From Candidatus Saccharimonadota bacterium (GTDB lineage: Bacteria > Bacteroidota > Bacteroidia > Flavobacteriales > Blattabacteriaceae), in contig CP100318.1 in assembly GCA_029851085.1 (NCBI GenBank), forward strand, positions 1 through 32,000: a stretch of 32,000 nucleotides of DNA, in the 5' to 3' direction. This document shows positions 6,608 to 27,518 of this stretch, one piece after another (position 1 is the stretch's first letter; each line of letters opens with the position of its first letter). The notes under the pieces were generated by a model. The model was not told the DNA's origin, ran no database searches, and saw only the letters and a program-made list of their open reading frames with translations. Position numbers and translations under genes: made by a program.

Positions 6608-6644
6608 ATAATAGCACGAATTATTTAATATTATTTAATAATAG

Positions 6645-6717
6645 CACGGGCGGTAAGATTCGAACTTACTACTTCCGGTTTTGGAGACCGGTGTTCTACC
6701 TATTGAACTACGCCCGT
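6645..6717 (-). tRNA. trnW: tRNA-Trp (anticodon CCA)
   Basis: Hand-folded cloverleaf: acceptor ACGGGCG/CGCCCGT, anticodon arm CCGGT-CTCCAAA-ACCGG, T arm GTAAG-TTCGAAT-CTTAC. A GC-rich island in AT-rich DNA at the conserved position upstream of secE. Confidence 0.9.
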
Positions 6718-6745
6718 TAATTAATTTTTTTTACTAAAATATTAT

Positions 6746-7933
6746 TTATTTTAAAATTTTAGTTACTTTTCCAGCTCCCACTGTTTTTCCACCTTCGCGA
6801 ATAGCAAAATGTAATCCTTCATTAAGAGCTACTGGTTGATGAAGTTTTACTTTAATAGTTAAATTATCTCCTGGCATAACCATATCTACACCTTCAAGAA
6901 GATTAACTTCTCCTGTTACATCTGTAGTTCTAAAATAAAATTGCGGACGATATTTATTATGAAAAGGAGTATGACGACCTCCTTCTTCTTTTGTTAAAAT
7001 ATATACTTCTGAAATAAATTCTTTATGAGGAGTTATATATCCTTGTTTTGCTATTACCATACCACGACGAACTTGATCTTTATTTATACCACGTAATAAT
7101 ATACCTAAATTATCTCCTGCTTGGCCATTATCTAATATTTTTCGATGCATTTCTATCCCTGTTATAGTAGAAGTTAATTTATCTTCGTTTAGACCAATAA
7201 TTTCAATAGAATCACCTGTTTTACACATACCTTTTTCTACACGACCAGTACATACTGTACCTCTACCTGTTATTGTAAATACATCTTCTATAGGCATTAA
7301 AAATGGTTTATCTATTTCACGTATTGGATCTGGCATATAGCTATCTATAGCTTTCATAAGCTCATTTATTTTTTCTATCCATTCTGGTTTTCCCTCAAGT
7401 GCTCCTAATGATGATCCTTTTATAATTGGAACATTATCACCATCATAATTATATTTAGATAATAATTCACGAGTTTCCATTTCAACTAATTCCAATAATT
7501 CAGTATCTTGTACTTTATCAACTTTATTTATATAAGGTAATAATACTGGAACACCTACTTCACGTGCTAGTAAAACGTGTTCATGAGTTTGAGGCATAAT
7601 TCCATCTGTAGCTGATATTACTAATATAGCACCATCCATTTGTGCAGCACCAGTAACCATATTTTTTATATAATCAGCGTGTCCAGGACAATCTACATGA
7701 GTGTAATGTCGTTTTTCTGTTTCGTATTCTACATGTGAAGTATTAATAGTAATACCTCTAGCTTTTTCCTCTGGAGCATTATCAATTTCTTCAAAACTTT
7801 TTTCTGTTGCTAATTTTCTTGCTGCTAAAACTTTAGTAATTGCAGCAGTAGTAGTAGTTTTACCATGATCAACATGACCTATAGAACCTACAGTAAAATT
7901 TGGTTTATTTCGTTTAAATATTTCTTTTGCCAT
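6746..7933 (-). CDS. tuf: Elongation factor Tu
   Basis: [27 protein letters not shown]..., unmistakably EF-Tu. I place the start at the ATG at 7933-7931. The longer ORF-track start at 7981 runs into tRNA-Thr and is rejected. Confidence 0.97.
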
Positions 7934-7950
7934 CTTTAAAATATAATTTG

Positions 7951-8022
7951 AGCCAATGACGGGAATTGAACCCGTGACCACTTTCTTACCAAGAAAGTGC
8001 TCTGCCTCTGAGCTACATTGGC
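7951..8022 (-). tRNA. trnT: tRNA-Thr (anticodon GGT)
   Basis: Hand-folded: acceptor GCCAATG/CATTGGC, anticodon arm CTTTC-TTGGTAA-GAAAG, T loop TTCAATT. 72 nt. Confidence 0.88.
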
Positions 8023-8046
8023 TACATTTGCTATAAATAATGCGTG

Positions 8047-8119
8047 AGCGGGAAACGGGATTCGAACCCGCGATCTTCAGCTTGGAAGGCTGACGCTATA
8101 CCAATTAAGCTATTCCCGC
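8047..8119 (-). tRNA. trnG: tRNA-Gly (anticodon TCC)
   Basis: Hand-folded: acceptor GCGGGAA/TTCCCGC, anticodon arm TCAGC-CTTCCAA-GCTGA, T loop TTCGAAT. 73 nt. Confidence 0.88.
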
Positions 8120-8122
8120 AAG

Positions 8123-8205
8123 TGGGGAGAGCAGGATTCGAACCTGCGAAGGTATAAACCAACAGATTTACAGTCTGCTCTCGTTAACCACTTGAGTATC
8201 TCCCC
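8123..8205 (-). tRNA. trnY: tRNA-Tyr (anticodon GTA), long variable arm
   Basis: Acceptor GGGGAGA/TCTCCCC, anticodon loop CTGTAAA, long variable arm, T loop TTCGAAT. 83 nt. Confidence 0.88.
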
Positions 8206-8215
8206 TAACTAATTG

Positions 8216-8289
8216 AGCCGGTGGAGGGATTTGAACCCACGACCCCGAGATTACAAATCACGTGCTCTACCAAACTGAGCTACACCGGC
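8216..8289 (-). tRNA. trnT: tRNA-Thr (anticodon TGT)
   Basis: Acceptor GCCGGTG/CACCGGC, anticodon loop TTTGTAA, T loop TTCAAAT. 74 nt. It completes the widely conserved Thr-Tyr-Gly-Thr-tuf arrangement. Confidence 0.85.
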
Positions 8290-8314
8290 AATAATTAATT
8301 ATAATAAAATTAAA

Positions 8315-10750
8315 CTATATTTTTGTAATAGAGGAAATTTGATCATCATTAGATTTCAAATTAATCAATTTTATACCTTGAGTAGCACGTCCCATAATTT
8401 TAATATCAGATATTAACATTCTAATTGCTACACCCGATTTCTTAATAATCATAAAATGTTGGGTATTTAATACATTATCAATAGCAATTAATTTTCCTGT
8501 TTTTTTTGTTATTTTAATAGTTTTTACACCTTTGCATCCTCTATTAGTAATAGGATAATCTTTTATATTAGAACGTTTTCCAAAACCTTTTTCAGAAACA
8601 ATTAATATAGTTTCATTTTCAAAATCATTAATACATATCATTCCAACTACAAAATCATCATTATATAATTTAATTCCTTTTATACCATAAGAATTTCTAT
8701 TCATAGTACGTATTTTTTTATTTGAAAAACGTAAAATCATCCCATTGTGTGATGCGATTAAAATGTGACTATTATCTTTTTTAATTATTTTAACTTTTTT
8801 TATAAAATCTCCATTTCGAATTTTAATAGCGTTAATACCATTTTTTCTAGGAATAGAATATTGTTGAAGAAGTGTCTTTTTTATAATACCATATTTAGTA
8901 ACCATTATAATATAATGATTTTTAACATATTCTTTATTATTAATATCATCAGTTAATATGCAAGCACTAATTTTATCTCCTGGTTCTATATTAATTAAAT
9001 TTTGTATTGGACGTCCTTTATATATTTTATGTCCTTCTGGTATTTCAAATACCCTAATCCAAAAACATTTTCCTTTTTTTGTAAAAAATAATGCATATTG
9101 ATGAGTAGTTGCTATAAGTAAATGTTCAATAAAATCTTCTTTACGTAAAGAAGCTCCTATATTACCTATTCCTCCTCGTTTTTGAGGTTTATATTCATTT
9201 AAAGGTGTTCTTTTAATATATCCTGCATTAGATATAGTTAATATAACAGGTTCATTAATAATTAAATCTTCCATAGTAACTTGACTACCTAAATAATTTA
9301 TTTTAGTACAACGTTTATCACTATATTTTTTTTTAATTTCAATAAGTTCATTTTTAATAATTTCCATACGTAATGTTTCTTGAGATAAAATATCTTTATA
9401 TTTTTCTATTATTTTTTTACAATCTTTATAATCATTTTTAATATTTTCACGTTCTATATTTGTAAGCCTATGTAAACGTACCTCAAGAATACTTTTTGCT
9501 TGTATTTTTGATAAGTTGAAATCCTTCATTAATACATTACATGCTTCATTATAATTTTTAGAATTTTTAATTAATTTAAAAATAATATCTATATTTTTTA
9601 ATGTAATTAAAAATCCTTCTAATATATGATAACGTTCTTCTGCTTTTTGTAAATCATATTTTGTTCTACGAGTAACTACTTCAATACGATGATTAACAAA
9701 ATATTTTATAATGTCTTTTAGATTAACTTTTGTAGGTTTTCCATTAATTAATGCTATATTATTTATGCTAAAAAATATTTGAAGATTAGTATATTTATAA
9801 AGTTGATTTAAAACTACATCTGGTACAACATTGTGTTTTAATACATAAACTATTCGTATACCTTTACGATTAGATTCATCACGAATATTTGAAATTCCTT
9901 CTAATTTACCTTCTTTAATTATAGTATAGGTTTTGATAAGTAAATCACTTTTAATAACTTGATAAGGTATTTCATCAACAATAATACATTCTTTATTATC
10001 TATATTTTCAAAATGTGTTTTAGCTCTGATTATAATTGATCCACGTCCTGTATGAAAAGCATTTTTTACTCCTTCGTATCCATAAATAATTCCTCCAGTA
10101 GGAAAATCTGGTGCTTTTATATAGTGCATTAAATTATCAATATCTATATCTTTATTATCAATAAATGCAAAAATTGCTTCTATAGATTCTTTTAAATTAT
10201 GGGGTGCCATATTAGTAGCCATTCCTACTGCAATTCCTGATACACCATTAATTAATAAATTAGGTATACGTGTAGGTAATACCGTAGGTTCTTTTAAAGA
10301 ATCATCAAAATTTAACTGCATATCTACTGTTTCTTTTTCTATATCTACAAGCATTTCCTCAGAAATTTTATTTAAACGTATTTCAGTATAACGCATAGCT
10401 GCAGGAGGATCATTATCAATAGATCCGAAATTTCCTTGACCATCAATTAATTTATAACGAAGTGACCAATTTTGTGCCATACGTACAATAGTATCATATA
10501 CAGAATTATCACCATGTGGATGCAATTTTCCTAAAACTTCGCCTACAATACGAGCTGATTTTTTATGTGTACGATTATATAGTAAACCTAATTTATACAT
10601 ACCAAAAAGAACTCTTCGATGTACGGGTTTAAGTCCATCTCTTATATCTGGCAATGCTCTAGAAATAATAACTGACATTGAATAATCTATATAAGATGAT
10701 TTCATTTCATCTTCAATATTTATTGGTATTATTTTTTCTTTATAAATCAT
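8315..10750 (-). CDS. gyrA: DNA gyrase subunit A
   Basis: 811-aa ORF with N-terminal [30 protein letters not shown] and the active-site AAMRYTE motif. Confidence 0.96.
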
Positions 10751-10757
10751 AGTTTTA

Positions 10758-12833
10758 TTATTTTCTAATTTCAGCTCCTAATTTTTCTTTAAAAACTTGT
10801 TTAAGTTTATTCATTATTTCATCTATTATTTGATTTGTTAATGTTTGTTTTTTACTTTCAAAATAAAAACTTATAGCATAAGATTTCTTACCTATAGGTA
10901 ATTGCTTACCATGATATATATCAAAAAGTTTTACTTTTGTAAGTAAGTTTTTTTCCGTATTTATTGCTAAATAATAAATATCTTCAAAAAGTATATTTAT
11001 ATCCAGTAATAATGATAAATCTCTTTTAATACCAGGATATTTAGAAATATTAATATATTTTATATTTTTTTGTTTAAAACAAACATCAGTAAAAATTTGC
11101 AAATTAAATTCAGCATAAAATACATTTTGATAAATATCAAATTTTTTTGTTATAGTTTCTCTAACTTTACCTATTTTAAATAAATTATAATTTAGATATT
11201 TTATTATAAGAGTTTCATATAAAAAATGATCATTAAATATTAATTTCTGAGTTGTATTATTAATACCAATTTTTTGCATTATTTGTTCTATAATACCCTT
11301 TAAATAAAAAAAAGATAGATCTAAAGAATCTACATTTATCCATTTTATATTTTCTATTTTACCAGTTATAGATAAACTTAAATATTTTGTTTCTAAGAAA
11401 TTATTATCTTTATAAAGATAAGATTTTCCAAATTCAAATAATTTTAGATTAAAATTTTTTCTCTTTATATTATAAGAAATACTTTCTAGCATACCGAATA
11501 AAAGATTTGGTTGCATTATAGATAAATCAGTACTTAATGGATTAATAACATTAACTATCATTTTATTTGTACTAGTATTTAATAAATTTATATAATTATC
11601 TTTTTTTAAAGAAATAGTAATTATTTCATTAAAACCATGAGCTAATAATTGTTGAGAAATAGTTTCTTCTATTTTAGAATAAAATTCATATGATGAATAA
11701 TTTTTTTTTGATTCATTGTATGAATAATTATTAATTGATTTTAAATTATTATATCCATAAATACGTAATATTTCTTCTATTATATCTATTTCACGTTTTA
11801 CATCTATCCTATATAATGGAACAGAAAGTATTAATGATTCTTCATTTTTAGAAATAATTTTAATTTCCAAAAGTTCTAAAATTTGACAAATTTTATTATG
11901 TGATATTTTGCATCCAATAATATTATATATTTTATTATATCGTAATCTAATTTTAGAATTAGATATATGTATAGGATATATGTCTATAATATCAGAAGAT
12001 ATATATCCACATGCAATTTCTTTTATTAATAATGCTGCGCGTTTTAATGCATAAATAGTTTTATTAGGATCTATTCCTCGTTCAAAACGAAAAGAATGTT
12101 CAGTATTTAAATTATGTATTTTAACACTTTTACGTATAGATAAAGGATTAAAATAAGCACTATCAATAAAAATATTTTTAGTATTATTAGTAACTTTATA
12201 ATTAATTCCTTCAAATATTCCAGCTAGACAAATAGGATTATTGTTATCGCAAATAATTAAATCATCTAATGATAAATTAATTTTATCTAAAAATGTATTG
12301 TTATTATTAACAGTGGTAACTTTAATATTAAATCCTTTAATTTTATCAGCATCAAATACATGCATAGGTTGACCTACTTCAAACATTACAAAATTAATAA
12401 TATCTATTATATTATTAATAGGATTAATTCCGATAATTTTTAATCTATTTTGTAGCCATTTTGGAGATTCAAAAATTTTAATTTTAGATATAGTTATTCC
12501 TGAATAACGTAAACATTTTTTTGTGTTTTCTACATTTATATTAATTGGAATCCAATCTATATTTTTTTTAAAATTTTTTACAGAAGGCATTATTAATTTA
12601 GCTTTATATTCACGAGTTATTAAAGCTGCATATAAATCTCTAGCTATTCCATAATGACTTATAGCATCAGAACGATTAGGTGTGATAACTATATCAATAG
12701 CCCAATCCATTAAATTATTATAATATTTTATGTTTTCTACTGATAAACCTATATCAGTTAATATATTTGATATTTGATTGATATCTAAGTCTGTAATAAG
12801 ATATTCTTTAAGCCATTTATAAGATATTATCAT
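10758..12833 (-). CDS. pheT: Phenylalanine--tRNA ligase beta subunit (short form)
   Basis: 691-aa ORF starting [12 protein letters not shown] with [18 protein letters not shown]. It is about 100 aa shorter than typical PheT (see findings). Confidence 0.92.
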
Positions 12834-12839
12834 ATTTAT

Positions 12840-13970
12840 TTATTGAGAATAATATGGCATAACTAACATTAATAATTCTTCTTCTTCTAAAGAATCAAAA
12901 GGTTTCAAAATTCCTGCTAAATTTGGTTTTGATAATTCAAATATAATATTTTCTCCATCAATATGTGATATTATATCTATTAAAAATTTTGAATTAAATC
13001 CTATTTTAAAATCTTTACCTGTATAATCACATTTTAATGTTTCAAAAGCTTGATTTGAAAAATCAATATCTTTTGCTATAAGATTCAATTTTTGAGATTT
13101 TAAATCTAAACATATTTGATAATTTTTTTTACTAGAAAAAAGTGCCATACGTTTAAGAGAATTTAAAAAAATATTTTTATTTATAATAAATTTTTTATCA
13201 TTATTTTTAGGAATTACAGATTCATAATTTGGATAATTACCAGTAATTAGTTTACATATTAATGTTTTGTCAGATAAAGAAAATTTTGTATTACTATCAT
13301 TATAATATATTGTCAATTGTTCTTCTTTTTTTGTCTTTAAAATACTTTTTAATATTTTTAATGGTTTTTTAGGAATAATTAATTTAGCAATTTGATTATT
13401 ATTTATAATAATATCTTTTCTAACATATTTTACTAATTTATAAGAATCTGTGCTTACAAAAACAGATTTATTAGTAGTAATATCAAAAAATACTCCTGTC
13501 ATAACTTGTTTAAATTCATCATTTCCTGAAGCAAATAATGTTTTATCAATTATTTTTGAAAATGTATTTGTGGATAATTTTATTGTACCTATATAATTAA
13601 TATTAGAAATATAAAGTGTAGGAAATGTTTCTGCATTTTGTATAGTTATGGTATAATTTCCATATTTAGAAATAATATTAAGTATATGTTCATTTTCTGA
13701 ATAAAATGTAATAGGTTGTTCAGAAAAATTTTTTAACGTATTTATAATTAATTTAGCTGGAACTGCAATTTTTCCTATTTGATAATTTTTAATGATATCA
13801 ATTTTAGTAATTAAAGTAATTTCTAAATCAGAAGCTATAACAAATAGTTTTTTATCTTTTACTTTAAAAATAAAATTATTTAAAATAGAAATAGGATTAT
13901 TGTAATTAATAATACCATTAAAATATTGTAAATATTTTAATAATTTATTACTTGAAATAGTAAATTTCAT
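12840..13970 (-). CDS. dnaN: DNA polymerase III beta sliding clamp
   Basis: 376-aa ORF, MKFTISSNKLLKYLQ..., of clamp-like length with the three-domain repeat pattern and the ending LLMLVMP typical of DnaN. Confidence 0.9.
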   Translation of the reverse strand: MKFTISSNKLLKYLQYFNGIINYNNPISILNNFIFKVKDKKLFVIASDLEITLITKIDIIKNYQIGKIAVPAKLIINTLKNFSEQPITFYSENEHILNIISKYGNYTITIQNAETFPTLYISNINYIGTIKLSTNTFSKIIDKTLFASGNDEFKQVMTGVFFDITTNKSVFVSTDSYKLVKYVRKDIIINNNQIAKLIIPKKPLKILKSILKTKKEEQLTIYYNDSNTKFSLSDKTLICKLITGNYPNYESVIPKNNDKKFIINKNIFLNSLKRMALFSSKKNYQICLDLKSQKLNLIAKDIDFSNQAFETLKCDYTGKDFKIGFNSKFLIDIISHIDGENIIFELSKPNLAGILKPFDSLEEEELLMLVMPYYSQ

Positions 13971-13987
13971 GAAATAGTAAATTTCAT
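13953..13987. repeat. 17-bp tandem duplication (2 copies) covering the dnaN start codon and first 5 codons
   Basis: GAAATAGTAAATTTCAT occurs at 13954-13970 and again, identical, at 13971-13987. Confidence 0.95.
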
Positions 13988-14002
13988 AATTAATATTATT
14001 AG

Positions 14003-14076
14003 TAGCGTGAGGGGGATTTGAACCCCCGACCTCCGGGTTATGAATCCGACGCTCTAACCATCTGAGCTATCACGCC
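14003..14076 (-). tRNA. tRNA with CAT anticodon (Met, fMet or lysidine-Ile; type unresolved)
   Basis: Acceptor GGCGTGA/TCACGCT with a G1-U72 wobble, anticodon arm TCGGA-TTCATAA-CCCGG, T loop TTCAAAT. 74 nt. Confidence 0.8.
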
Positions 14077-14129
14077 TTTTATTTATATTTTTAATAATAT
14101 ATTATTAATTATTTATATTTTATTTTTAA

Positions 14130-14687
14130 ATGAGAATTATTTCTGGAAAATTAAAAGGAAAAATATTTTCAATACCTAAAAATTTATCTAAAATTAGACC
14201 AACTACAGATAGAGCTAAAGAATCATTATTTAATATATTAAATAATAAAATTATATTTAATAATAAATTAGTTGTAGATTTATTTTGTGGAATAGGAAGT
14301 ATAAGTTATGAATTTGTTTCTAGAGGAATTTCTAAAATATATTCTTTAGATATTAATGCTATGTGTATTCAATATATACGAAAAAAATCTATAGATTTTA
14401 ATATCCAAAATAAAATTTTAGCATTAAAATATAACGTATTTTTTTTTTTAAAAAAAAATAGAAATCTTAATTCAGATATAATTTTTGCTGATCCACCTTA
14501 TGGTATGGAAGATAAATATTTTTTATTATTAATAAATTTATGTTTTAATAATGAATTGATTAAAAAAAATGGTATTCTAATTATAGAACATCCAGTTAAT
14601 AAACAAATATTTTGTGATAATAAAAATTATATTAATACAAAAAAATATGGAAGAATTTGTTTTAGTTTTTTTACTAAAAAAAATTAA
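14130..14687 (+). CDS. rsmD: 16S rRNA (guanine966-N2)-methyltransferase
   Basis: 185-aa ORF: MRIISGKLKG...RPTTDRAKESLFNIL, a SAM motif VVDLFCGIGS, and the DPPY catalytic motif. Confidence 0.88.
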   Translation: MRIISGKLKGKIFSIPKNLSKIRPTTDRAKESLFNILNNKIIFNNKLVVDLFCGIGSISYEFVSRGISKIYSLDINAMCIQYIRKKSIDFNIQNKILALKYNVFFFLKKNRNLNSDIIFADPPYGMEDKYFLLLINLCFNNELIKKNGILIIEHPVNKQIFCDNKNYINTKKYGRICFSFFTKKN

Positions 14688-14709: not shown

Positions 14710-14791
14710 ATAAATATGTCTGTTCCTATAACATCAAATTTTAAAAACAATAATTAATAAATATGTCTGTTCCTATAACATCAAATTTTAA
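14710..14791. repeat. 35-bp direct repeat (2 identical copies, 12-bp spacer) duplicating the rpsA start region
   Basis: ATAAATATGTCTGTTCCTATAACATCAAATTTTAA occurs at 14710-14744 and at 14757-14791. Confidence 0.95.
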
Positions 14792-16528: not shown

Positions 16529-19500
16529 CTAATAATCAATTGTCCAATTTCCTTTTTCTTTTATTAAAAAATTTTCTAATTGTTTATATTTAATACGTTT
16601 AATATCACCATTAATGATATTACGTAATGTAATATAATCCTTACTATTAATATTATTTAATAATTTAAAAAATTCTTCTGAAAGATTCAATTTATTTATT
16701 GAATTTAATTTAAATTTAAATAAAAAAGATACTATATTTTTATATATATCATTAATTACTTTTTTAAAAAGAGTAAAAGCTTTGCTTTTATAAACTAAAA
16801 TAGGATCTTTTTGTTCATAAACTGCATTTTGTACAAAATTACGTAAATCGTCCATTTCACTAAGATGTTGTTTCCATAGAGAATCTATAACATTCAAAAT
16901 AATTTTTTGTTCAATATTATTAAATTGTATATTTACATCATATGATGATATTAATATATTTCTATTTCCATCAGATAATAAAATATTATTTTTATCTATT
17001 AAAGACTTAAACTCATTAAGTTTTATACTTTTAATAAGTTTATAATGTTTCATTATTATAATGAATAATTCATTGATAATATTTTTTTGATTTGAACTAA
17101 AAATTTCAATAATTTGGTTTGTAATTAATCCAAAAATATTAATTAATTCTGATTTAAAATGTTCTAAATTTTTTTTATTATTATTAACAATTTCATTAAT
17201 TACATGATAAATCATCTTTGAAATATCTATATCAATATGTTTTCCTAAAATAGCAGATTTACGTAAATTATAAATTATTTCTCTTTGTTTATTCATTACA
17301 TTATCATATTCTAGTAATCGTTTTCGTATCATAAAATTATTTTCTTCTACTTTTTTTTGAGCACGTTCTATTGAACGTGTAATTAATGAGTGTTGTATTG
17401 CCTCACCAATTATATCCATTAATTTGGATAATCTATCTGATCCTATGAATAAACGCATTAATTTATCTTCTAAAGAAACATAAAATTGAGAACTTCCTGG
17501 ATCTCCTTGACGACCTGCACGTCCTCTTAATTGACGATCTATACGTCTTGACTCATGTCTTTCAGTTCCTAAAATTGCTAAACCTCCATATTTTATAACT
17601 TCTTTAGAAAGTTTAATATCAGTACCTCGTCCTGCCATATTAGTAGCGATAGTTACTACACTAGTAGATCCAGCTTGGGCAATAATATCAGCTTCTTTTT
17701 TATGTAATTTAGCATTTAAAACATTATGTTTAATATTTCTTAATTTTAATGCACAACTTAAAAGTTCTGAAACTTCTACAGAAGTAGTTCCTACTAATAC
17801 TGGACGTTTATATTTTGTTGATAACAGTACTATTTCTTCAATAATTGCATTATATTTTTCACGCATTGTTTTAAAAACAAGATCTTCTTTATCAAGACGT
17901 TTTATAGGTTTATTAGGTGGTATAATTACTACATCTAATTTATATAAATACCAAAATTCATCAGCTTCAGTTTCTGCAGTACCAGTCATACCAGATATTT
18001 TATTATACATTCTAAAATAATTTTGTAAAGTAATACTAGCTAAAGTTTGACTAGGAGATTCTATTTTAACATTTTCCTTAGCTTCAATAGCTTGATGTAT
18101 ACCATCAGCATAACGACGACCTTCTATTATTCTTCCAGTTTGTTCATCAACAATTTTAACATGTCCATCTAAAACAACATAATCAACATCTTTATTAAAA
18201 AGTGTATAAGCTTTTAATAATTGATTAATAGCGTGAATACGTTTTGACTTATATGAATAAATATTTAATATTTTTTCTCTTTGAGTAAATTCTTCTTCTT
18301 TAGATAAATTTATTAATTCTAAATTAATAATTTCCATTGTTATATCAGGTAATATAAAAAACGAGTTATCATTTACACTTTTTGAAATAAAATCAATTCC
18401 TTTATCTGTAAGTACTACAGTATTATTAGCTTCATTTATGATAAAATATAAGTCAACATCAACTGTTGACATATCTTCACAATTATCTTTATTATATTTA
18501 TTTTCAGTATTTTGTAAAATATTGAGTATATTTTTTTCACTTAAAAATTTTATTAAAGGTTTATATTTAGGTAAACCTCTATAAACTTGTAAAAGTTTAA
18601 AACCACCTAAAAGAGTATCACCTTTTTTAATTAATTCACGTGAATTTTTAAGAATTTTACTTAATTCTATACGTTGTTTTTCAATCATAGATTGAACTAC
18701 ATTTTTCAACAAATAAAAATTATTTTCTAAATTATTTTCTTTAGTATCTATTGGACCTGATATAATTAAAGGAGTACGAGCTTCATCAATTAATACCGAA
18801 TCTACTTCATCAATAATTACATAATTAAGTTCACGTTGCATTAAATCTTTTTTATTTTGCACCATATTATCACGCAAATAATCAAATCCAAATTCGTTAT
18901 TGCTACCATAAGTAATATCTGCTTGATAAGCTTCTTTACGCATATTAGTATTTGGAATATATTTATCTATACAATCTACTTTAAGTCCATGAAATTCCAT
19001 TAAAGGTGCTATCCATGCAGCATCCCTTTTTGCTAAATAATCATTTACAGTAACTACATGAACTCCTCTTCCAGTTAAAGCATTTAAATAAATTGGTAAA
19101 GTTGCTACTAATGTTTTACCTTCACCAGTAGCCATTTCAGCAATTTTACCATGATGAAGTATTATTCCACCTAAAATTTGTACATCATAATAAATGATAT
19201 CCCATATTATGGGTTTTCCTGCAGCATCCCAAGATGTTTTCCAAATAGCTTTGTCTTCTTGTAAAATAACATAATCTTTATTTAAAGAAAATTCTTTATC
19301 AAAAAAAGTAGCTTTAACTATAAGTTCTTTATTTTCTTTAAAACGTCTAGAAGTTTCTATAACTACAGCAAAAGCTTCAGGAAGTAATTTATTTAAACAA
19401 TCTTTTTCTATTTGATACATTTCTTTTTTTAATTTTTCTAATTGTATATAAATACTTTCTTTTAAAGAAAGATCAGAAGATTGTTCAATTTTCGTTTTTA

Positions 19501-19708: not shown

Positions 19709-19730
19709 TTGAAAACATTATGTAAATAAA

Positions 19731-19958: not shown

Positions 19959-20005
19959 AATATTAATAATTTATATATTGTATAATAATAACAAAAAAAA
20001 AATAT

Positions 20006-20908
20006 TTAACATTCTTTTTTATAACGTTTAATATGTTCTTGTATAGATTCTTTTACGGGAATAAATTTGTATTTTAATATTTTAATTATTTTTTCATTTG
20101 AAAAATGAATATAGTTTTTTTTAAAAAAATTTAAAATTTTTTTATTAAAATTTTTTTTTAAAAAAATTTTTCTTTTTTTATTAAAAGAATAAATATTATT
20201 TATATTTCTTATTTCTTCATAAGAAATATTTTCACTATTTAATAGATAACGTTCATTTATATGATTTTCATCCATTAAACGAATACAACATTTAGCTACA
20301 TCTCTAACATCAATACATCCAATAGTACCTATTGGCGATTTATTTATAATAAATTCAAATAAATTTTTTTTTTTCCAAAATCCTGAAGCTAAAACAATAC
20401 TAGGATTTACAATAATAACATTTAATCCTTCTTTATTACCACGCCATACTTCTATTTCTGATAAAAATTTAGTATAATAATCATTATTATATAATTTGTT
20501 TGTTAAAAACAATTCTGTAATATGATTATTTACTTGATCATTAGAAATGAATATTGAATTAATGTAACATATTTTTTTTACACCTGTAGCAATACATATA
20601 TTAATTACATCAGTTATATCAGTAATATTTTTTTTAAAAAATCCTTGCCAAAGGCTTATTAAATTATTTGTGTAATATACTTCATCTATTCCTTCAAATA
20701 TTGATGTATTAAATATATCATCATTAACCCATTCTATATTTTTTAATAAAAAATTAGTTGTTTTTTGTGTATTATAATAATTAAATATATGTTTTAATAT
20801 ATCAATACATTTTTTTGTTCGTAATACTCTAACATTTTTTCCTTTTTTAAGAAGATATAATAATATATAACTACTTATTAAATCATTTACTTTTAAAATA
20901 AAAGTCAT
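20006..20908 (-). CDS. Degenerate NAD-dependent epimerase/dehydratase (extended SDR) family protein
   Basis: 300-aa ORF of SDR-like length and layout (YYTKFLSEIEVW...GLNVIIVNPSIVLASG). The N-terminal GxxGxxG is replaced by KVNDLISS. The start ATG overlaps the ruvC stop (ATGA). Confidence 0.6.
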   Translation of the reverse strand: MTFILKVNDLISSYILLYLLKKGKNVRVLRTKKCIDILKHIFNYYNTQKTTNFLLKNIEWVNDDIFNTSIFEGIDEVYYTNNLISLWQGFFKKNITDITDVINICIATGVKKICYINSIFISNDQVNNHITELFLTNKLYNNDYYTKFLSEIEVWRGNKEGLNVIIVNPSIVLASGFWKKKNLFEFIINKSPIGTIGCIDVRDVAKCCIRLMDENHINERYLLNSENISYEEIRNINNIYSFNKKRKIFLKKNFNKKILNFFKKNYIHFSNEKIIKILKYKFIPVKESIQEHIKRYKKEC

Positions 20909-21498
20909 TTTAGAATAATTCTATTAATATTTTGTTTAACAAATGAATTCCAATTTTTATATTTTTTATTATTTGTTATGTTTTTTCTATTAAGATAATG
21001 ACAAACAGCTGTAGCTAATCCATCTGTAGAATCAATTTTTTTTTTTTTTAAAAAATTACTATTAATATTTAATAATGTTTTTAACATTTTGGATATTTGT
21101 TCTTTTGAAGCATTACCATTTCCAGTTATAGCCATTTTTATTTTTCTAGGAGAATATTCATTAATAATAATATTTTTATATAAACCAGCTGCTATAGCTA
21201 CTCCTTGTGCTTGTATTATTTTAATCATAGATTGTACATTTTTTCCCATAAAATTGGATTCAATTGCTAATTCATTTGGATGATATATATCAATTATATT
21301 TATAGTTTTTTCAAAAATAATTTTTAATTTTAAATGATGATTAGAATATTTTTTTAATAACAATTGATCTAAATATATTAATTCAATATTATTTTTAATT
21401 ATTTTAATTAAACCAAAACCCATTACAATAGTACCTGGATCAATACCTAATATAATTAAATCTTGCACGTTACGTGTAATTTTTGATTTAAAAATCAA
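20905..21498 (-). CDS. ruvC: Holliday junction resolvase RuvC
   Basis: 197-aa ORF with the ILGIDPGTIVMGFG catalytic N-terminus. The only usable start is TTG at 21498-21496, because the first in-frame ATG lies after the catalytic Asp. Confidence 0.88.
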   Translation of the reverse strand: MIFKSKITRNVQDLIILGIDPGTIVMGFGLIKIIKNNIELIYLDQLLLKKYSNHHLKLKIIFEKTINIIDIYHPNELAIESNFMGKNVQSMIKIIQAQGVAIAAGLYKNIIINEYSPRKIKMAITGNGNASKEQISKMLKTLLNINSNFLKKKKIDSTDGLATAVCHYLNRKNITNNKKYKNWNSFVKQNINRIILK

Positions 21499-21511
21499 TA
21501 TAAGAAAATCT

Positions 21512-22141
21512 TCATTTTAAATCATCAATTACATAAACTAAATAATAGTTATCTATTTTTAGATAAAATGCAATAAAAGCTTTACAATATGATTTATCTA
21601 TAATCCAACATATTATATAAGGATCTTTTATTGAAAAAGGACTAATTTTATAATTAAGTAAAAAATTAACTAATTTTTTATTAGATAGTTTGTATAAACT
21701 TTCTTTAATACCCCAAATTATGTGTAATTGATCAACTTCAATACTATAATCAATAAAGTTAGCTTCATCTTTTCTAAGAAATTTATTTTTTACTTTTAAA
21801 ATTTTATTTATTTGACATTTTTCGATATCAACTCCTATAATATTATTACTAGTAGCTACTACTACTTTATTATAAGAATGACTAAATGAAACATTAAATT
21901 TATAATTTTTTATATAAGGTTTACCATTTAAATAATAAACTCTAGTATCTAATCCTAAATATTTTAAACAACAACGTATAGCTAAAAATTCGTATCTACG
22001 TTTTATATGTTTTATACAAGTAAATTTTTTTTTTTGAAAAAAAGGATTTAAATATTTTATTAAATAATTTTCACTTTCAATTAATTCCCATATTATAAGT
22101 TTAGTATGTTTATTTTTTTCTATTATTTTTATTATAGGAAT
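21512..22141 (-). CDS. 4'-phosphopantetheinyl transferase (Sfp type); start codon uncertain and non-canonical
   Basis: Absent from the ORF track. My hand translation of the minus strand gives an open frame of about 209 codons, from a TAA at 22165-22163 to a TGA at 21514-21512. It carries the PPTase motifs GVDIE and WGIKESLYK and a Bacteroidota-type N-terminus KLIIWELIES. The frame contains no ATG, GTG or TTG. Candidate starts are ATT at 22141 or neighbouring ATA codons. Confidence 0.75.
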   Translation of the reverse strand: MPIIKIIEKNKHTKLIIWELIESENYLIKYLNPFFQKKKFTCIKHIKRRYEFLAIRCCLKYLGLDTRVYYLNGKPYIKNYKFNVSFSHSYNKVVVATSNNIIGVDIEKCQINKILKVKNKFLRKDEANFIDYSIEVDQLHIIWGIKESLYKLSNKKLVNFLLNYKISPFSIKDPYIICWIIDKSYCKAFIAFYLKIDNYYLVYVIDDLK

Positions 22142-22146
22142 AACTA

Positions 22147-22941
22147 TTATATTTTTATTATATTATTATTATCTATATTCCAAGTTTTCCATATATTTTT
22201 TGTATTTATAAATAATAAATAAATACAAAATATCAATACTATTATAATAATAAAAATTATCAATTTATAATTTTGTATATAGGATATATTAATATTTTTC
22301 TTATTATAATATAATAAGATTTCTATTAAATTATTAAATAAATGTAAAAAAATACAATTTAATATTGAACGAGTACTAAAATATATAAATCCAATTACAC
22401 TACCTATTATAAATCCTGCAATAAATTGCAATGGATTCATATGGATTATACCAAATAAAAATGAAGAAAATAATATAGCATTTATATAATAAATCTTATT
22501 TTTAATAAGACCATTTAAAATAATACCTCTAAATAATATTTCTTCACATATAGGAGCTAATATTATTGTTGTAATTATAAAAGAAATAGGATGACAAAAA
22601 TATTTAATAATATCTGATGATCTAATTTGTATTAGATATAATATATATTCAGTTAAAATCATTGTTAATAACAATATAATAAAAATTAAAGGGTAAAAAT
22701 ACCATTTTGATAATTTTAAATTATCTTTAATAACTTTTTTATTAAAATTATATTTTAAGGATAAAAAATAAAAAATTAAGATAAATGGTATTACATATGA
22801 AATAGGAAATAAAATATATATCGGTACAAAAAATTTTTTTATTAAAATTGTACTTATACATATTGTTATTATACTTATAAATAACCAATTTATTATTAAA
22901 TAAATTGATTTAATATAATTTAAATTAAATTTTTTATTCAT
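22147..22941 (-). CDS. CPBP family (CAAX-type) intramembrane metalloprotease
   Basis: 264-aa polytopic membrane ORF with the three CPBP motifs: EEILFR (EExxxR), FGIIH (FxxxH) and HLFNN (HxxxN). Confidence 0.8.
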   Translation of the reverse strand: MNKKFNLNYIKSIYLIINWLFISIITICISTILIKKFFVPIYILFPISYVIPFILIFYFLSLKYNFNKKVIKDNLKLSKWYFYPLIFIILLLTMILTEYILYLIQIRSSDIIKYFCHPISFIITTIILAPICEEILFRGIILNGLIKNKIYYINAILFSSFLFGIIHMNPLQFIAGFIIGSVIGFIYFSTRSILNCIFLHLFNNLIEILLYYNKKNINISYIQNYKLIIFIIIIVLIFCIYLLFINTKNIWKTWNIDNNNIIKI

Positions 22942-23030
22942 ATTATATATATAAATAACCTTATTAAATAAATTGATTTAATATAATTTAAATTATTCAT
23001 ATTATATAAATAAATAAATTGATTTAAATT
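22877..23030. repeat. Diverged duplication (2 copies plus a third partial) of the 5' end of the CPBP gene including its start codon
   Basis: Copy A at 22877-22950 is the genuine 5' end. Copy B at 22951-23008 is identical except for a 6-bp and a 9-bp gap. The core AAATAAATTGATTTAA recurs a third time near 23012-23027. Confidence 0.9.
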
Positions 23031-23037
23031 ATATATG

Positions 23038-23108
23038 TAGACTCGTAGGGATTCGAACCCTAACTAACAGAATCAAAATCTGTTGTGCTACCATTACACT
23101 ACAAGTCT
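23038..23108 (-). tRNA. trnQ: tRNA-Gln (anticodon TTG)
   Basis: Acceptor AGACTTG/CGAGTCT, anticodon arm ACAGA-TTTTGAT-TCTGT, T arm TAGGG-TTCGAAT-CCCTA. 71 nt. Confidence 0.85.
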
Positions 23109-23152
23109 TATAATAAAAATTATAATATAAATAAAATTAATAAATATTATAT

Positions 23153-23491
23153 ATGTCTTTAAAAATTCGTTTACAAAGAAAAGGAAGAAAAAAAAAACCA
23201 TATTATCCAATTGTTGTTATTGATTCACGTTTTCATAGAAATGGTAAATTTATAGAAAAATTAGGATTTTATAATCCACATACTAATCCTTCCACTATTA
23301 TATTAAATGTGGATAGTGCACTTAATTGGTTACAGAAAGGTGCTCAACCTACAAATACTGCAAGATCTATTCTTTCTAAAAAAGGTGTTTTATTAAAACA
23401 ACATTTATTAAAAGGTGTAAAAAAACAAGCATTAAATGTTGTTGAAGCTGAAAATAAATTTAAAAAGTGGATTGAAAATAAAAATGCGTAA
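23153..23491 (+). CDS. rpsP: 30S ribosomal protein S16
   Basis: MSLKIRLQRKGRKKKPYYPIVVIDSR...GFYNP, a typical S16 with a C-terminal extension. Confidence 0.95.
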   Translation: MSLKIRLQRKGRKKKPYYPIVVIDSRFHRNGKFIEKLGFYNPHTNPSTIILNVDSALNWLQKGAQPTNTARSILSKKGVLLKQHLLKGVKKQALNVVEAENKFKKWIENKNA

Positions 23492-23679
23492 TAAACATAA
23501 TTATTTTTTTTAAATCTACAAATACTGCAAGATCTATTCTTTCTAAAAAAGGTGTTTTATTAAAACAACATTTATTAAAAGGTGTAAAAAAACAAGCATT
23601 AAATGTTGTTGAAGCTGAAAATAAATTTAAAAAGTGGATTGAAAATAAAAATGCGTAATAAACATAATTATTTTTTTTT
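23349..23679. repeat. Near-perfect direct duplication (163 and 164 bp, 4-bp spacer) of the rpsP 3' end plus the rimM start
   Basis: 23349-23511 and 23516-23679 are identical by hand alignment except for a T-run of 8 versus 9. Confidence 0.95.
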
Positions 23680-24151
23680 AGGAAAACTGATAAAATCACG
23701 TATTAAAAAGTATGATTTTGTTATATTATTAAATAATAATATATGTTTTAATAAAAATATTAAATTTTTATTAATAGAATTAGAGGGAATTTTAATTCCT
23801 TTTTTAATAAAATCATATTTGTTAATTAATAATAAATTTTTAATTGATTTTGAATTTTTTTTAAAAAAAGAATATTACAATATTACAGGAAGTAATATTT
23901 ATTTAGAATTTAAATATTTACTTTTTACAGAAAATGTTAATAATAACATTATAGGTTTTAATGTAAAAGATATAAATAAAGGATTTATAGGTGTTGTTAT
24001 AGATATTTATCGTAACTTAAAACAAGATCTTTTTAAAGTTTATTTTGAAAATAAATATTTTTTAATACCTATAACAAAAGTTTTTATAAAAGAAATAAAT
24101 ATAAATGAAAAATATATTTTAACTGAAATTCCATTTGGATTAATAGAATAA
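23651..24151 (+). CDS. rimM: Ribosome maturation factor RimM
   Basis: MRNKHNYFFLGKLIKS... with C-terminal FLIPITKVFIKEININEKYILTEIPFGL, in the conserved rpsP-rimM order. I prefer the ATG at 23651. The ORF-track start at 23603 lies inside the duplicated rpsP fragment. Confidence 0.82.
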   Translation: MRNKHNYFFLGKLIKSRIKKYDFVILLNNNICFNKNIKFLLIELEGILIPFLIKSYLLINNKFLIDFEFFLKKEYYNITGSNIYLEFKYLLFTENVNNNIIGFNVKDINKGFIGVVIDIYRNLKQDLFKVYFENKYFLIPITKVFIKEININEKYILTEIPFGLIE

Positions 24152-26071
24152 TTATATATCTATATTTGCATAAATAGAATTTGATTCTATAAATTTTTTA
24201 CGAGGTAACACATTATCTCCCATAAGAATTGAAAATATATTATCAGCTTCTACATTATCTTTTATTATTAATTGACGTAAAATTCTATTTTTTGGATTCA
24301 TTGTTGTTTCCCATAATTGATCAGCATTCATTTCTCCTAATCCTTTATATCTTTGAATATTTATTCCTTTATTATTGTCAAATTTATGTTTTATAATATG
24401 TTCTCTATCTTTTTCATTCCATGCATAAAAAGATTTTTTACCTTTTTTTATTAAATATAAAGGAGGCATAGCTATATAAATATAGCCTTTTTCTATTAAA
24501 ATTTTCATATAACGAAAAAAGAAAGTAATAATAAGTGTAGAAATATGACTACCATCTATATCAGCATCTGTCATTATTATTATTTTATAATAACGTAATT
24601 TATCTAAGTTTAAAATAGATGTTTTTTCACAAGAAAGACCTAAAGCCATAAATATATTACGTATATCTTCATTTTCATAAATTTTATTTTGCATTGCTTT
24701 CTCAACATTTAATATTTTTCCACGTAATGGTAATATTGCTTGAAAATTTCTATCACGTCCTTGTTTAGCAGTTCCTCCTGCAGAATCTCCTTCTACTAAA
24801 AATATTTCACAATTTTTAGGTTCATTTAAAGAACAATCGGCTAATTTTCCAGGTAATCCTAATCCTATATTACTTATTAAAATATTATTATGTATTAATT
24901 CACGAGTTCTTTTAGCTGCTTTTCTAGCTTTAGCAGCAATAATAATTTTTTCTATTATTTTTTTAGCATCATATGGATATTCTTCTAAATAACTACCAAG
25001 CATATCTCCTACAATTTTGTCTACAGCTCCGATAACTTCATTATTACTTAATTTAGTTTTAGTTTGTCCTTCAAATTGAGGATACATTAATTTAATAGAT
25101 ATTATTGCGGTAATGCCTTCACGAAAATCATCACCAATTAAATCAATATTTTCTTTTTTTAAAATACCATTTTCTTCAGCATATTTTTTTAGTGTTCTAG
25201 TTATTGCTCTACGAAATCCTGTTAAATGAGTACCACCTTCTTGTGTATTAATATTATTAACATATGAAAGTATTTTTTCTTTAAAAGAAGTATTATACTT
25301 TATAGCTATTTCTACAAAAATATCATTTATTTTATCTTCTATTAAAATAATATTTTTTATAATTGATTCACAATCTTTATCTATAAAAGATATAAACTCT
25401 TTCAATCCGTATTTTGAATAAAAAATTTTTTTTTTAAAATTTACTTCACTATCAATTTCTCTTTCATCAATAAAATATATGAATATTCCTTTGTTTAAAA
25501 AAGATAATTCTCTAAAACGTGTTGCTAATACATCATAATTATATGTTATATTATTAAATATAGTATTATCAGCTTTAAATGTTATTTCAGTGCCTTGTTT
25601 AGAAGTATTACCTATATATTCTAAATCTGTTATAGCTTTTCCTTTAGAATATTTTTGACGATAAATTTTATTATCACGATATATAGTAGCAATTAGCCAT
25701 TCTGATAAAGCATTTACGCAAGAAATTCCAATTCCATGTAATCCTCCAGATATTTTATATGAATTTTTATCAAATTTTCCTCCAGCTCCTATTTTTGTCA
25801 TAACTAATTCAAGTGCTGAACATTTTTCTTTTTTATGTTTATCTATAGGAATACCCCTTCCATTATCTTTAATAGTAATAGAATTATCTTTATGTATAGT
25901 AACCCATATTTTATTACAAAATCCAGCTAGAGCTTCATCTATAGAATTATCTATTACTTCATTGACCAAATGATGAAATCCTTTAGATCCTACATCGCCA
26001 ATATACATGGATGGTCTTAATCTTACATGTTCAATTCCTTCAAAAAATTGAATATTATCAGCTGTATACAT
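24152..26071 (-). CDS. gyrB: DNA gyrase subunit B
   Basis: 639-aa ORF with YTADNIQFFEGIEHVRLRPSMYIG, GGLHGIG, LVEGDSAGG and PLRGKILNVEKA motifs. Confidence 0.97.
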   Translation of the reverse strand: MYTADNIQFFEGIEHVRLRPSMYIGDVGSKGFHHLVNEVIDNSIDEALAGFCNKIWVTIHKDNSITIKDNGRGIPIDKHKKEKCSALELVMTKIGAGGKFDKNSYKISGGLHGIGISCVNALSEWLIATIYRDNKIYRQKYSKGKAITDLEYIGNTSKQGTEITFKADNTIFNNITYNYDVLATRFRELSFLNKGIFIYFIDEREIDSEVNFKKKIFYSKYGLKEFISFIDKDCESIIKNIILIEDKINDIFVEIAIKYNTSFKEKILSYVNNINTQEGGTHLTGFRRAITRTLKKYAEENGILKKENIDLIGDDFREGITAIISIKLMYPQFEGQTKTKLSNNEVIGAVDKIVGDMLGSYLEEYPYDAKKIIEKIIIAAKARKAAKRTRELIHNNILISNIGLGLPGKLADCSLNEPKNCEIFLVEGDSAGGTAKQGRDRNFQAILPLRGKILNVEKAMQNKIYENEDIRNIFMALGLSCEKTSILNLDKLRYYKIIIMTDADIDGSHISTLIITFFFRYMKILIEKGYIYIAMPPLYLIKKGKKSFYAWNEKDREHIIKHKFDNNKGINIQRYKGLGEMNADQLWETTMNPKNRILRQLIIKDNVEADNIFSILMGDNVLPRKKFIESNSIYANIDI

Positions 26072-26119
26072 GGTAATTTAAAAAATATAAATGGTAATTT
26101 AAAAAATATAAATGGTAAT
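26070..26119. repeat. 21-bp tandem repeat (2.4 copies) abutting the gyrB start codon
   Basis: ATGGTAATTTAAAAAATATAA occurs at 26070-26090 and 26091-26111, and its first 8 nt recur at 26112-26119. The first unit includes two bases of the start codon. Confidence 0.95.
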
Positions 26120-26201
26120 GTATATAAATATAATATAAAAATTAACTTTTTTAAAATAATTTTTTATTATATTTATTATATAATTATATAAATATAATAT
26201 G

Positions 26202-26897
26202 TTAATTAATGTTGATATAATATAACATAATTAATGTTGATTAACATAATTAATGTTGATTAATGTTGATAATTAATGTTGATTAACATAATTAATGTTG
26301 ATAATTAATGTTGATAATTAATGTTGATAATTAATGTTGATAAATTAATGTTGATTAATTAATGTTGATAATTAATGTTGATAATTAATGTTGATAATTA
26401 ATGTTGATAAATTAATGTTGATTAATTAATGTTGATAATTAATGTTGATAATTAATGTTGATAATTAATGTTGATAAATTAATGTTGATAATTAATGTTG
26501 ATAAACATAATTAATGTTGATAATTAATGTTGATAAATTAATGTTGATTAATTAATGTTGATAATTAATGTTGATAATTAATGTTGATAATTAATGTTGA
26601 TAAATTAATGTTGATAATTAATGTTGATTAACATAATTAATGTTGATAATTAATGTTGATAATTAATGTTGATAATTAATGTTGATAAATTAATGTTGAT
26701 AATTAATGTTGATAATTAATGTTGATAATTAATGTTGATAATTAATGTTGATAAATTAATGTTGATAATTAATGTTGATAATTAATGTTGATAATTAATG
26801 TTGATTATTAATGTTGATTAATTAATGTTGATAATTAATGTTGATAATTAATGTTGATAATTAATGTTGATAAATTAATGTTGATTAATGTTGATAA
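26202..26897. repeat. Minisatellite array: roughly 50 head-to-tail units of 13-14 bp (core TTAATGTTGATAA) with a 67-bp higher-order period
   Basis: I hand-counted about 50 occurrences of TTAATGTTGA. The unit variants are A = ATAATTAATGTTG, B = ATAAATTAATGTTG and C = ATTAATTAATGTTG, plus occasional 19-nt AACATA-containing units. The block AAABC (67 bp) repeats perfectly at 26301-26367 and 26368-26434. Confidence 0.97.
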
Positions 26898-27518
26898 TTA
26901 ATGTGGTAAATACACTACTTTTTTAGTGTAGAAAAATTTTTGATTAAAATAATCAATTAAATAATATTCTTTTGCTTGTGGAAAATTTTTTAATTCTTTA
27001 GAAAGGTCACCTCCTTTTAAAAAAAAAATACCATTTGGTAAATTATGTCGATTTTTAGATAAAAATTTTCCTTTTACCCATTTATATAAATATTGTATAC
27101 GTGTAACAGCACGGCTTATGATAAAATCAAATTTATCTTTAACATCATTAGCACGTATACAAGATATATTTACATTTATTAATCCTAATTCATATGAAAT
27201 TAATTCTACTACTTTAGTTTTTTTTTTAATAGAATCTATTAATAAAAATTGGCTTTCTGGGAATAATATTGCTAAAGGAATTCCAGGAAATCCACCACCT
27301 GTTCCTACATCCATAATATATGATTTAGGTAAAAAATTAATTATTTTAGCTATACCTAATGAATGTAACACGTGGTGTTCATAAAAATTGTTTATAATTG
27401 TTTTTCTAGAAATTAAATTTATACGTGTATTCCAATACATATATATATTTTTCATCTGAATAAAACGTTCAATTTGTTGATTATTTAGTTCAGAAAAATA
27501 TTTTGTTAGAGTTAACAT
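26898..27518 (-). CDS. rsmG: 16S rRNA (guanine527-N7)-methyltransferase
   Basis: 206-aa ORF with the SAM motif DVGTGGGFPGIPLAI, GidB/RsmG-like throughout. Confidence 0.9.
   Translation of the reverse strand: MLTLTKYFSELNNQQIERFIQMKNIYMYWNTRINLISRKTIINNFYEHHVLHSLGIAKIINFLPKSYIMDVGTGGGFPGIPLAILFPESQFLLIDSIKKKTKVVELISYELGLINVNISCIRANDVKDKFDFIISRAVTRIQYLYKWVKGKFLSKNRHNLPNGIFFLKGGDLSKELKNFPQAKEYYLIDYFNQKFFYTKKVVYLPH

Follow-up and report, generated by a model that had tools for sequence, protein, structure and literature searches.

Tandem copies of gene ends in the spacers of Candidatus Bostrichicola ureolyticus strain LBRU

Gene-end copies in the window

CP100318 is the genome of Candidatus Bostrichicola ureolyticus strain LBRU, the obligate symbiont of the powder-post beetle Lyctus brunneus, and comprises 337 kb at 22% G+C. 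The window, as the whole stretch analyzed here is called, covers its first 32,000 nucleotides (nt), and the subject of this report is the DNA between the genes of that window, most of which consists of copies of the adjoining gene ends. The 32 kb, likewise at 22% G+C, are dense in housekeeping genes, with 30,140 of the 32,000 nt (94%) genic when acpS is counted. In order, the window carries rpoB, rplL/J, rplA, rplK, nusG, secE, tRNA-Trp, tuf and four tRNAs; gyrA, pheT, dnaN, tRNA-Met, rsmD, rpsA and secA; a DUF2795 gene, a 300-amino acid (aa) open reading frame (ORF), ruvC, acpS, a CPBP protease gene and tRNA-Gln; and rpsP, rimM, gyrB, rsmG, genes for an aminotransferase and a SurA-like protein, tatA and cysS. 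Its GyrB is 98% identical to that of B. ureolyticus CP100320 and 86% identical to that of CP100321, also a Bostrichicola.

An inspection of these letters, hereafter the original prediction, had proposed that duplications of gene termini occupy at least six spacers, with a weak seventh candidate at the 3' end of tRNA-Trp. The sequence itself, Tandem Repeats Finder (TRF) and a direct-repeat census place all of them where they had been located, and the weak candidate is a genuine, decayed tandem copy (Table 1). Two cases lie beyond that list, namely copies of the 5' end of tRNA-Thr and a 14-nt insertion at the junction of the CPBP 3' end and the acpS 5' end. All copies run head-to-tail in a single orientation, next to each other or almost so, at offsets of 17, 47, 59-68, 167, 21 and 13 nt. 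Summed from their coordinates, gene-end copies make up about 1.1 of the 1.86 kb of the window that are non-genic (~60%).

Table 1. Copies of gene ends and related insertions, in window coordinates
Feature	Position	Strand	Structure
secE start / tRNA-Trp 3' end copy	6593-6648	-	old decayed tandem copy, ~27-30 nt
tRNA-Thr(GGT) 5' end copies	8012-8033	-	GCTACATTG x2.4, 9-nt unit (TRF)
dnaN start duplication	13953-13986	-	TGAAATAGTAAATTTCA x2, perfect 17-nt tandem
rpsA start-region repeat	14710-14744 and 14757-14791	+	35 nt x2, perfect; 12 nt of unrelated spacer between
CPBP 3' end / acpS 5' junction	~22150-22175	-	LBRU-specific 14-nt insertion within short tandem repeats
CPBP 5' end and decayed copy before tRNA-Gln	22876-23030	-	plus secondary 22-nt partial copy
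rpsP 3' end and rimM 5' end	23349-23511 and 23516-23678	+	163-nt perfect repeat, 167-nt period
gyrB leader and start codon repeat	26065-26133	-	21-nt unit, 3.2 copies (TRF); exact part 2.4 copies
rsmG 3' end array	26203-26904	-	TAATTAATGTTGA x51.8

The placement of these repeats is not random. The census collected exact, non-low-complexity direct repeats within 400 nt of each other, and expectations came from shuffling every genic or non-genic segment with its dinucleotides preserved. Enrichment at gene boundaries over shuffled sequence, as expected from the original prediction, is evident: repeats of at least 17 nt number six at junctions (merged by a clustering step into 4 loci) and none inside genes, where the shuffles give 0.09 and 0.15, respectively. 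Chance is excluded as the source of the junction repeats. At a threshold of at least 15 nt, 11 pairs are found outside the rsmG array, nine of them on gene edges or in spacers. The two gene-internal pairs are 15 nt each, and one of them is a 12-nt tandem copy, in frame, within the SurA-like gene.

Genes also hold approximate tandem repeats that stay in frame. Such repeats have a period of ~21 at the 3' end of the aminotransferase gene (28701-28741), periods of 21 and 12 in the SurA-like gene (28856-28911 and 29094-29120), where the 12-nt repeat is an LBRU-specific insertion, and a period of 27 in pheT (11684-11740).

Dispersed or mobile repeats, such as insertion sequences, miniature inverted-repeat transposable elements or repetitive extragenic palindromes, were considered and rejected: each repeat pairs with its neighbor only, and there is no transposase among the ORFs of the window. 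A search of the window against Rfam returned the seven tRNAs only, and no RNA gene hidden in the spacers. A promoter and terminator scan of 22800-27600 yielded fewer promoter-like sites than in shuffled sequence, and no terminators.

Strain comparison and support in reads

Orthologous junctions were examined in the Lyctus-host strains LCAV (CP100320; loci L004 and L011 joined, 33.4 kb) and LAFR (a draft genome, L008) and in the Dinoderus-host strains DPOR (a PacBio-derived contig, L009) and DMIN (CP100321, L006), with 22-33 kb sampled per strain for the comparison of repeats. The aligned columns of LBRU and LCAV, 28.4 kb in all, show 98.7% identity; DMIN and DPOR are ~88% identical to LBRU. 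Gene order across the region is the same in LBRU, LCAV, DMIN and DPOR, no rearrangement having been found, and high synteny is stated for Bostrichicola in the paper that describes these genomes.

The comparison shows that the pattern is specific to one lineage: it characterizes Lyctus-host strains and not Dinoderus-host strains. Five junctions that are compact in DPOR and DMIN (secE|tRNA-Trp, tRNA-Trp|tuf, rsmD|rpsA, CPBP|tRNA-Gln and rpsP|rimM) are expanded in both LBRU and LCAV, and a table of spacer lengths shows gyrB|rsmG to be expanded in LBRU only. DPOR and DMIN are single-copy at dnaN, rpsA, secE/tRNA-Trp, CPBP/tRNA-Gln, rpsP/rimM and gyrB, and the Dinoderus-host strains show just one in-frame 54-nt copy, in a fast-evolving gene, and a few short repeats. 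Among the Lyctus-host strains, duplications at orthologous junctions are shared, remodeled or different; copy number or extent varies among LBRU, LCAV and LAFR at rpsA, rsmD, secE, tRNA-Thr, rimM, rsmG and dnaN.

This variation orders the events. Common to LBRU and LCAV are the 17-nt dnaN copy, the secE/tRNA-Trp copy, the tRNA-Thr copies and probably the CPBP/tRNA-Gln duplication. The 38-nt rpsA insertion, the 167-nt rpsP/rimM duplication, the 21-nt gyrB repeat and the 13-nt array occur in LBRU only, and a 71-nt array of the rimM start, a 16-nt secE copy and a copy of the rsmG 3' end with a 98-nt period occur in LCAV only. Thus the notion of several events of different age holds, on the strength of shared and strain-specific copies in sister strains, whereas the use of perfect identity as a sign of youth does not: the dnaN copy is perfect and predates the split of LBRU and LCAV.

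At dnaN the duplication takes in the ATG at 13968-13970, and the upstream copy forms a 6-codon ORF, MKFTIS, whose TGA stop overlaps the real ATG. The 17-nt copy is present in LBRU and LCAV (in the Illumina-only contigs L002 and L012), partly deleted in LAFR and single-copy in DPOR. The rpsA repeat originated as a 38-nt out-of-frame insertion, found in LBRU only, and the ATG that now opens the gene is the downstream one (14763). The upstream copy, MSVPITSNFKNNN followed by a stop, retains three ancestral codons (KNN) that the supposedly intact gene no longer has. One intact copy is kept of each gene, as had been claimed, with the reservation that the rpsA copy is short of its ancestral KNN. LCAV and LAFR have instead a separate 9- or 13-nt copy of the rpsA ATG region. 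In LAFR only, the rsmD start is copied (25 nt exact, offset 69).

Included in the decayed secE/tRNA-Trp copy are the start codon of secE (6605-6607) and, from 6644 onward, the beginning of the tRNA-Trp 3' end. The gap between secE start and tRNA is ~5 nt in DPOR, the ACGAATTATTTAAT junction is common to LBRU and LCAV, and LCAV alone has the additional 16-nt copy at the secE start. The tRNA-Thr unit occurs twice in LBRU and three times in LCAV.

The CPBP gene is affected at both ends. Toward acpS, the 14-nt insertion alters the C-terminus of the CPBP protein and leaves acpS without an ATG, GTG or TTG start; the region was consequently missed by the ORF listing and appears non-coding. The acpS-like (phosphopantetheinyl transferase) frame at 21518-22141 (-) is nevertheless open, and its protein is 99% identical to that of LCAV, where the start is GTG. 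Toward tRNA-Gln, 22893-22927 and 22961-22995 are identical over 35 nt, the match extending to ~58 versus 49 nt across a 9-nt indel, and a third, partial copy lies at 23005-23027. Alignment with LCAV suggests that this arrangement most probably derives from a single ancestral tandem duplication of ~130 nt (CPBP 5' end, ~100 nt; the spacer; tRNA-Gln 3' end, 17 nt) that decayed in LBRU by losses of 49, 10 and 14 nt and the gain of the 22-nt copy. Independent events at every shared junction are therefore rejected in this case. In DPOR and DMIN this spacer is just 24-31 nt long.

The stop codon of rpsP and the start of rimM overlap (ATGCGTAA), and the 163-nt repeat straddles both; the intact copy of rpsP ends at 23491, and that of rimM begins at 23651. 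DMIN has a 9-nt spacer and no repeat at this junction, and in LCAV a different unit, 71 nt of the rimM start, is repeated four times or more. Breakpoint homology was assessed at dnaN and rpsP/rimM, and at these two sites amounts to 0-1 nt, with a 4-nt filler, AAAT, at 23512-23515. The gyrB unit includes only 7 nt of coding sequence and has ATT in the upstream copies where the real copy has ATG; the 21-nt repeat is absent from LCAV and DMIN.

The largest feature is the array at the rsmG 3' end. It adjoins the stop codon (26898-26900), and its unit represents the two final codons, the stop and the 4 nt that follow, matching the rsmG end at 12 of 13 positions if the LCAV state (CAA CAT) is taken as ancestral. 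All 50 matches to the 13-nt unit fall inside the array, whose copy number (~52) is given only by the published hybrid assembly. Unit variants of 14 and 19 nt and higher-order repeats of 53 and 126 nt are typical of growth by slippage. The array is absent from LCAV and DMIN; in LCAV the rsmG 3' end has been copied separately, with a period of 98 nt.

The gyrB-rsmG spacer that contains the array is the largest spacer in all strains, and gene orientation flips there. To its left (1-26071), 19 protein genes and all seven tRNAs lie on the minus strand and four genes on the plus strand; to its right, as far as ~37.5 kb (26898-32000 and the continuation in contig L003), eight genes are on the plus strand and three on the minus strand. 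The flip may mark a replication origin. GC skew was rejected as an origin marker, in that skew in the window merely tracks the gene strand.

The objection that the copies might be artefacts, which the original prediction had itself raised, was examined in the reads. The published LBRU genome is an Illumina and Nanopore hybrid, in which SPAdes and MaSuRCA contigs were re-assembled in Geneious, according to the source paper; the same paper identifies run SRR19201365 as the Lyctus brunneus sample. Illumina-only Logan contigs of this run match the window at 100% identity, and the dnaN 17-nt and gyrB 21-nt repeats lie inside such contigs (gyrB in L001). For the longer repeats, a de Bruijn graph with k=31 was built from the window itself and its unitig ends were predicted. 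The predicted ends at 26256, 23649, 14739 and 26875 are the exact observed ends of Logan contigs L001, L002 and L003; 14739 falls in the rpsA repeat, 23649 in the rpsP/rimM repeat, and 26256 and 26875 at the array edges. This match implies that the 35-nt rpsA repeat, the 163-nt rpsP/rimM repeat (with its T8 versus T9 difference) and both array edges are present in the reads with distinct flanks. In LCAV the Logan contig ends are 10 and 27 nt off the k=31 predictions, which gives approximate read support for that strain. An exact look-up of the rpsP product gave no record for the SRR19201365 sample, as is expected if contigs break in the repeated 3' end of the gene.

A discrepancy in the AT-rich gyrB-rsmG spacer concerns DMIN, for which the reference (L006, 9739-10000) and the Logan contig of the same sample (L007, 1-345) differ by ~100 nt, so that one or both of the assemblies must be in error.

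Indel spectrum and the origin of the copies

The comparison of LBRU with LCAV yielded 79 indels, whose sizes depend on where they fall. Of the 24 inside coding sequence, 22 have a length divisible by three, and none exceeds 15 nt; within 30 nt of the ends of coding sequences the fraction is 3/9, with lengths up to 16 nt, and in spacers 13/46, with lengths up to 136 nt. The two exceptions in coding sequence form a +2/-2 pair, 22 nt apart, in secA (18315-18337), where the frame is locally shifted for ~7 codons and then restored. Among the coding-sequence indels of at least 3 nt, 11 of 22 are perfect or near-perfect tandem copies. When polarized, coding-sequence indels comprise ~7 insertions and 7-11 deletions. 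The spectrum indicates that one process of copying and loss operates everywhere, and that selection removes the events that break reading frames. The proposal that duplication is tolerated only where it straddles a gene boundary thus needs to be divided: a selective filter fits the indel spectrum, but short in-frame duplications survive inside genes as well.

The filter is imperfect. Besides the loss of KNN from rpsA and of a normal start codon from acpS, a difference of one 5-nt copy fuses rplJ and rplL. In LBRU, rplJ (L10) and rplL (L7/L12) form a single 314-aa frame at 3816-4760 (-); the rplJ stop of LCAV is created by an extra TAAAT, and in DPOR the two genes are separate. Contig L013, built from Illumina reads only, contains the fused ORF too, which is thus not a Nanopore error. 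In the LAFR draft, pheT is called in two pieces of 531 and 114 aa (L008, 2511-4586), which suggests a frameshift or pseudogene, or an error of the draft.

These observations favor frequent slippage or tandem duplication combined with purifying selection over special machinery, a reading to which we assign a probability of about 75%. On the Lyctus-host branch, slippage or template switching would generate head-to-tail duplications and losses at a high rate relative to substitutions, with duplication units from 3 to ~170 nt. Purifying selection would then clear nearly all breakage of reading frames, and the survivors would be fixed by drift. The events expected to survive are short in-frame copies where a gene tolerates them; duplications of which one breakpoint or both lie outside genes, leaving one full copy of each flanking gene and truncated fragments between; and copies within the few spacers. 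Since the ancestral spacers measured 0-50 nt (rpsP and rimM overlapping by 8 nt), any tolerated duplication of at least 17 nt must carry a gene start or stop, and the present spacers would have been largely assembled from gene-end fragments in this way. Paired copies would also be unstable, tending to expand (13 nt x ~52 in LBRU; 71 nt x4 or more in LCAV) and to decay by further indels, and such instability accounts in part for the differing states of a given junction among sister strains. No mechanism directed at starts and stops has to be invoked.

Several points weigh against this account. The slippage mechanism and the elevated mutational input are inferred. The analysis covers 32 kb of 337 kb, the array copy number comes from the hybrid assembly, and the array may be heterogeneous within the host. 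The polarized spacer counts, 27 insertions versus 2 deletions, are biased, in that outgroup spacers are unalignable and the array is counted several times. Finally, four junctions (rsmD|rpsA, CPBP|tRNA-Gln, rpsP|rimM and gyrB|rsmG) have changed in a lineage-specific manner in both LBRU and LCAV, an overlap that among 31 junctions would occur at random with a probability of ~5e-4 by a hypergeometric estimate. A plain model of uniform mutation thus requires either that junctions differ in tolerance or that duplication begets duplication. Possible reasons for the overlap are differences in the tolerance of insertions (at transcription-unit boundaries and tRNA flanks), the promotion of slippage by existing repeats, and mutational hot spots.

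The last of these leads to the strongest competitor, in which gene termini are themselves mutational hot spots, by fork stalling, replication-transcription conflict or closeness to the origin, such that placement reflects mutation and not selection. The recurrence of change at the same four junctions is what such hot spots would produce; furthermore, six of the 10 affected junctions adjoin a tRNA gene, others adjoin rpsA, rpsP, tuf and secE, and the largest array lies in the spacer where gene orientation flips. However, the filter model, with ancestral spacers of 0-50 nt, already predicts the placement, and in-frame copies inside genes arise from the same process. At least one apparent recurrence, CPBP/tRNA-Gln, reduces to one ancestral event and its decay, breakpoints have no fixed offset from starts or stops, units beginning 0 to ~140 nt inside genes, and the association with tRNAs is marginal (6/11 versus 4/21 junctions). 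Hot spots as the general explanation of placement are therefore unlikely. Slightly less probable still is the narrower proposition that recurrence at a few junctions reflects a real hot-spot mechanism, for instance with forks that stall, or change template, where highly transcribed units and tRNA genes end, or with instability that emanates from a DnaA-less origin in the gyrB-rsmG spacer. If true, it would make Lyctus-host Bostrichicola a natural system for the study of replication errors aimed at gene termini.

It is very improbable that the copies are retained for a function, be it as upstream short frames that tune the translation of dnaN, rpsA, CPBP and rimM, as a means of uncoupling rpsP and rimM, or, in the case of the array, as an origin or protein-binding site. 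The TGA of two upstream copies (dnaN and CPBP) does overlap the real ATG, and rpsP and rimM, which overlap by 8 nt in the Lyctus-host strains, have become separated in both LBRU and LCAV. Early stops after a frame-shifted fragment are nonetheless expected at 22% G+C, the ATG is lost in the upstream gyrB copies, and no copy keeps its form between strains 1.3% apart, from which absence of function is inferred. As for the array, the minus-strand junction between its units, TTATCAACA, is an 8/9 match to the DnaA box and occurs ~40 times, with no exact box in the array. The orthologous spacers of LCAV and DMIN contain neither the motif nor the array, and no DnaA box at one mismatch or fewer was found in that of LCAV or, for DMIN, in either the reference or the Logan contig. 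The related Blattabacterium (Bge) has neither dnaA nor DnaA boxes, and dnaA is not among the genes of the 32-kb window. The resemblance is treated as a coincidence, with a small residual probability that it marks an origin.

Least probable of all is an artefact of assembly, scaffolding or polishing, in which contig joins in low-coverage, AT-rich spacers make false tandem copies: the re-assembly in Geneious, a run of N in the LCAV rimM repeat, the DMIN discrepancy and an array length taken from a single assembly lend it some color, but the short repeats stand intact in independent Illumina-only contigs, the longer ones end contigs exactly at the four graph-predicted positions, no complete rpsP product is recorded for the sample, and the dnaN copy recurs in LCAV reads and, in part, in LAFR.

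Comparison with known systems

Tiny obligate-symbiont genomes are the textbook case of structural stasis and deletion bias. Against this background, the Bostrichicola spacers are a new instance of a known genome behavior and reveal no new molecular system. No account of the gene-end copies in Bostrichicola was found in the literature searched, and the Bostrichicola paper does not contain the string 'duplicat' and has no list of repair genes for Bostrichicola. The pattern provides a second independent lineage, after the Portiera of Bemisia tabaci, in which one host-specific branch quickly gains and turns over tandem repeats. With strains only 1.3% apart, insertion, expansion and decay become datable, and the selective filter is directly visible. 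There are practical consequences too: orphaned start codons, the shifted rpsA start, the rplJ-rplL fusion and the loss of the acpS start, all of which arise from small indels, complicate annotation, and contigs break at these repeats in assembly. The original prediction had suggested a lineage-specific defect in replication or repair. A repair defect in the Lyctus-host branch is plausible, and it is predicted that a replication or repair gene may have been lost there.

The closest precedent is Portiera aleyrodidarum of Bemisia tabaci, in which intergenic tandem repeats have proliferated in one host lineage and not in its sisters; perfect repeats occur, the tandem repeats are mostly 7-nt microsatellites, the indel spectrum lacks the usual excess of deletions, spacers are greatly enlarged and the coding fraction is 69% (Sloan and Moran 2013, PMC3673631). 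That genome also shows rearrangements, within-host structural polymorphism and the loss of dnaQ, mutL, ruvC, dnaN, ssb and others (PMC3673631). Both are ancient obligate insect symbionts, and the proliferation of spacer repeats in Lyctus-host Bostrichicola is likewise specific to a lineage. In contrast to Portiera, the Bostrichicola units measure 9-170 nt and are copies of gene termini, the window is 94% genic with an identical gene order in four strains, and dnaN and ruvC are present and intact.

The arrangement also recalls a process from organelles. In animal mitochondrial genomes, tandem duplication by slippage is followed by random loss; the duplicated segments usually hold whole genes, and loss reorders them. 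As there, the Bostrichicola segments straddle a boundary, one intact copy of each gene remains and redundant fragments decay into spacer; unlike there, the segments are sub-genic and gene order is unchanged. Bacterial variable-number tandem repeats, or minisatellites, form by slipped-strand mispairing. The 13-nt array of ~52 copies resembles these in its unit variants, its 53- and 126-nt periods and its absence from a strain 1.3% diverged, but differs in having been seeded by a stop-codon region, and in belonging to a class of genomes normally without repeats.

What fills the spacers of a reduced genome is a question that has also been asked of Buchnera (Degnan et al. 2011, PMC3164680). In the Bostrichicola window, ~60% of the spacer DNA consists of recent copies of the flanking gene ends.

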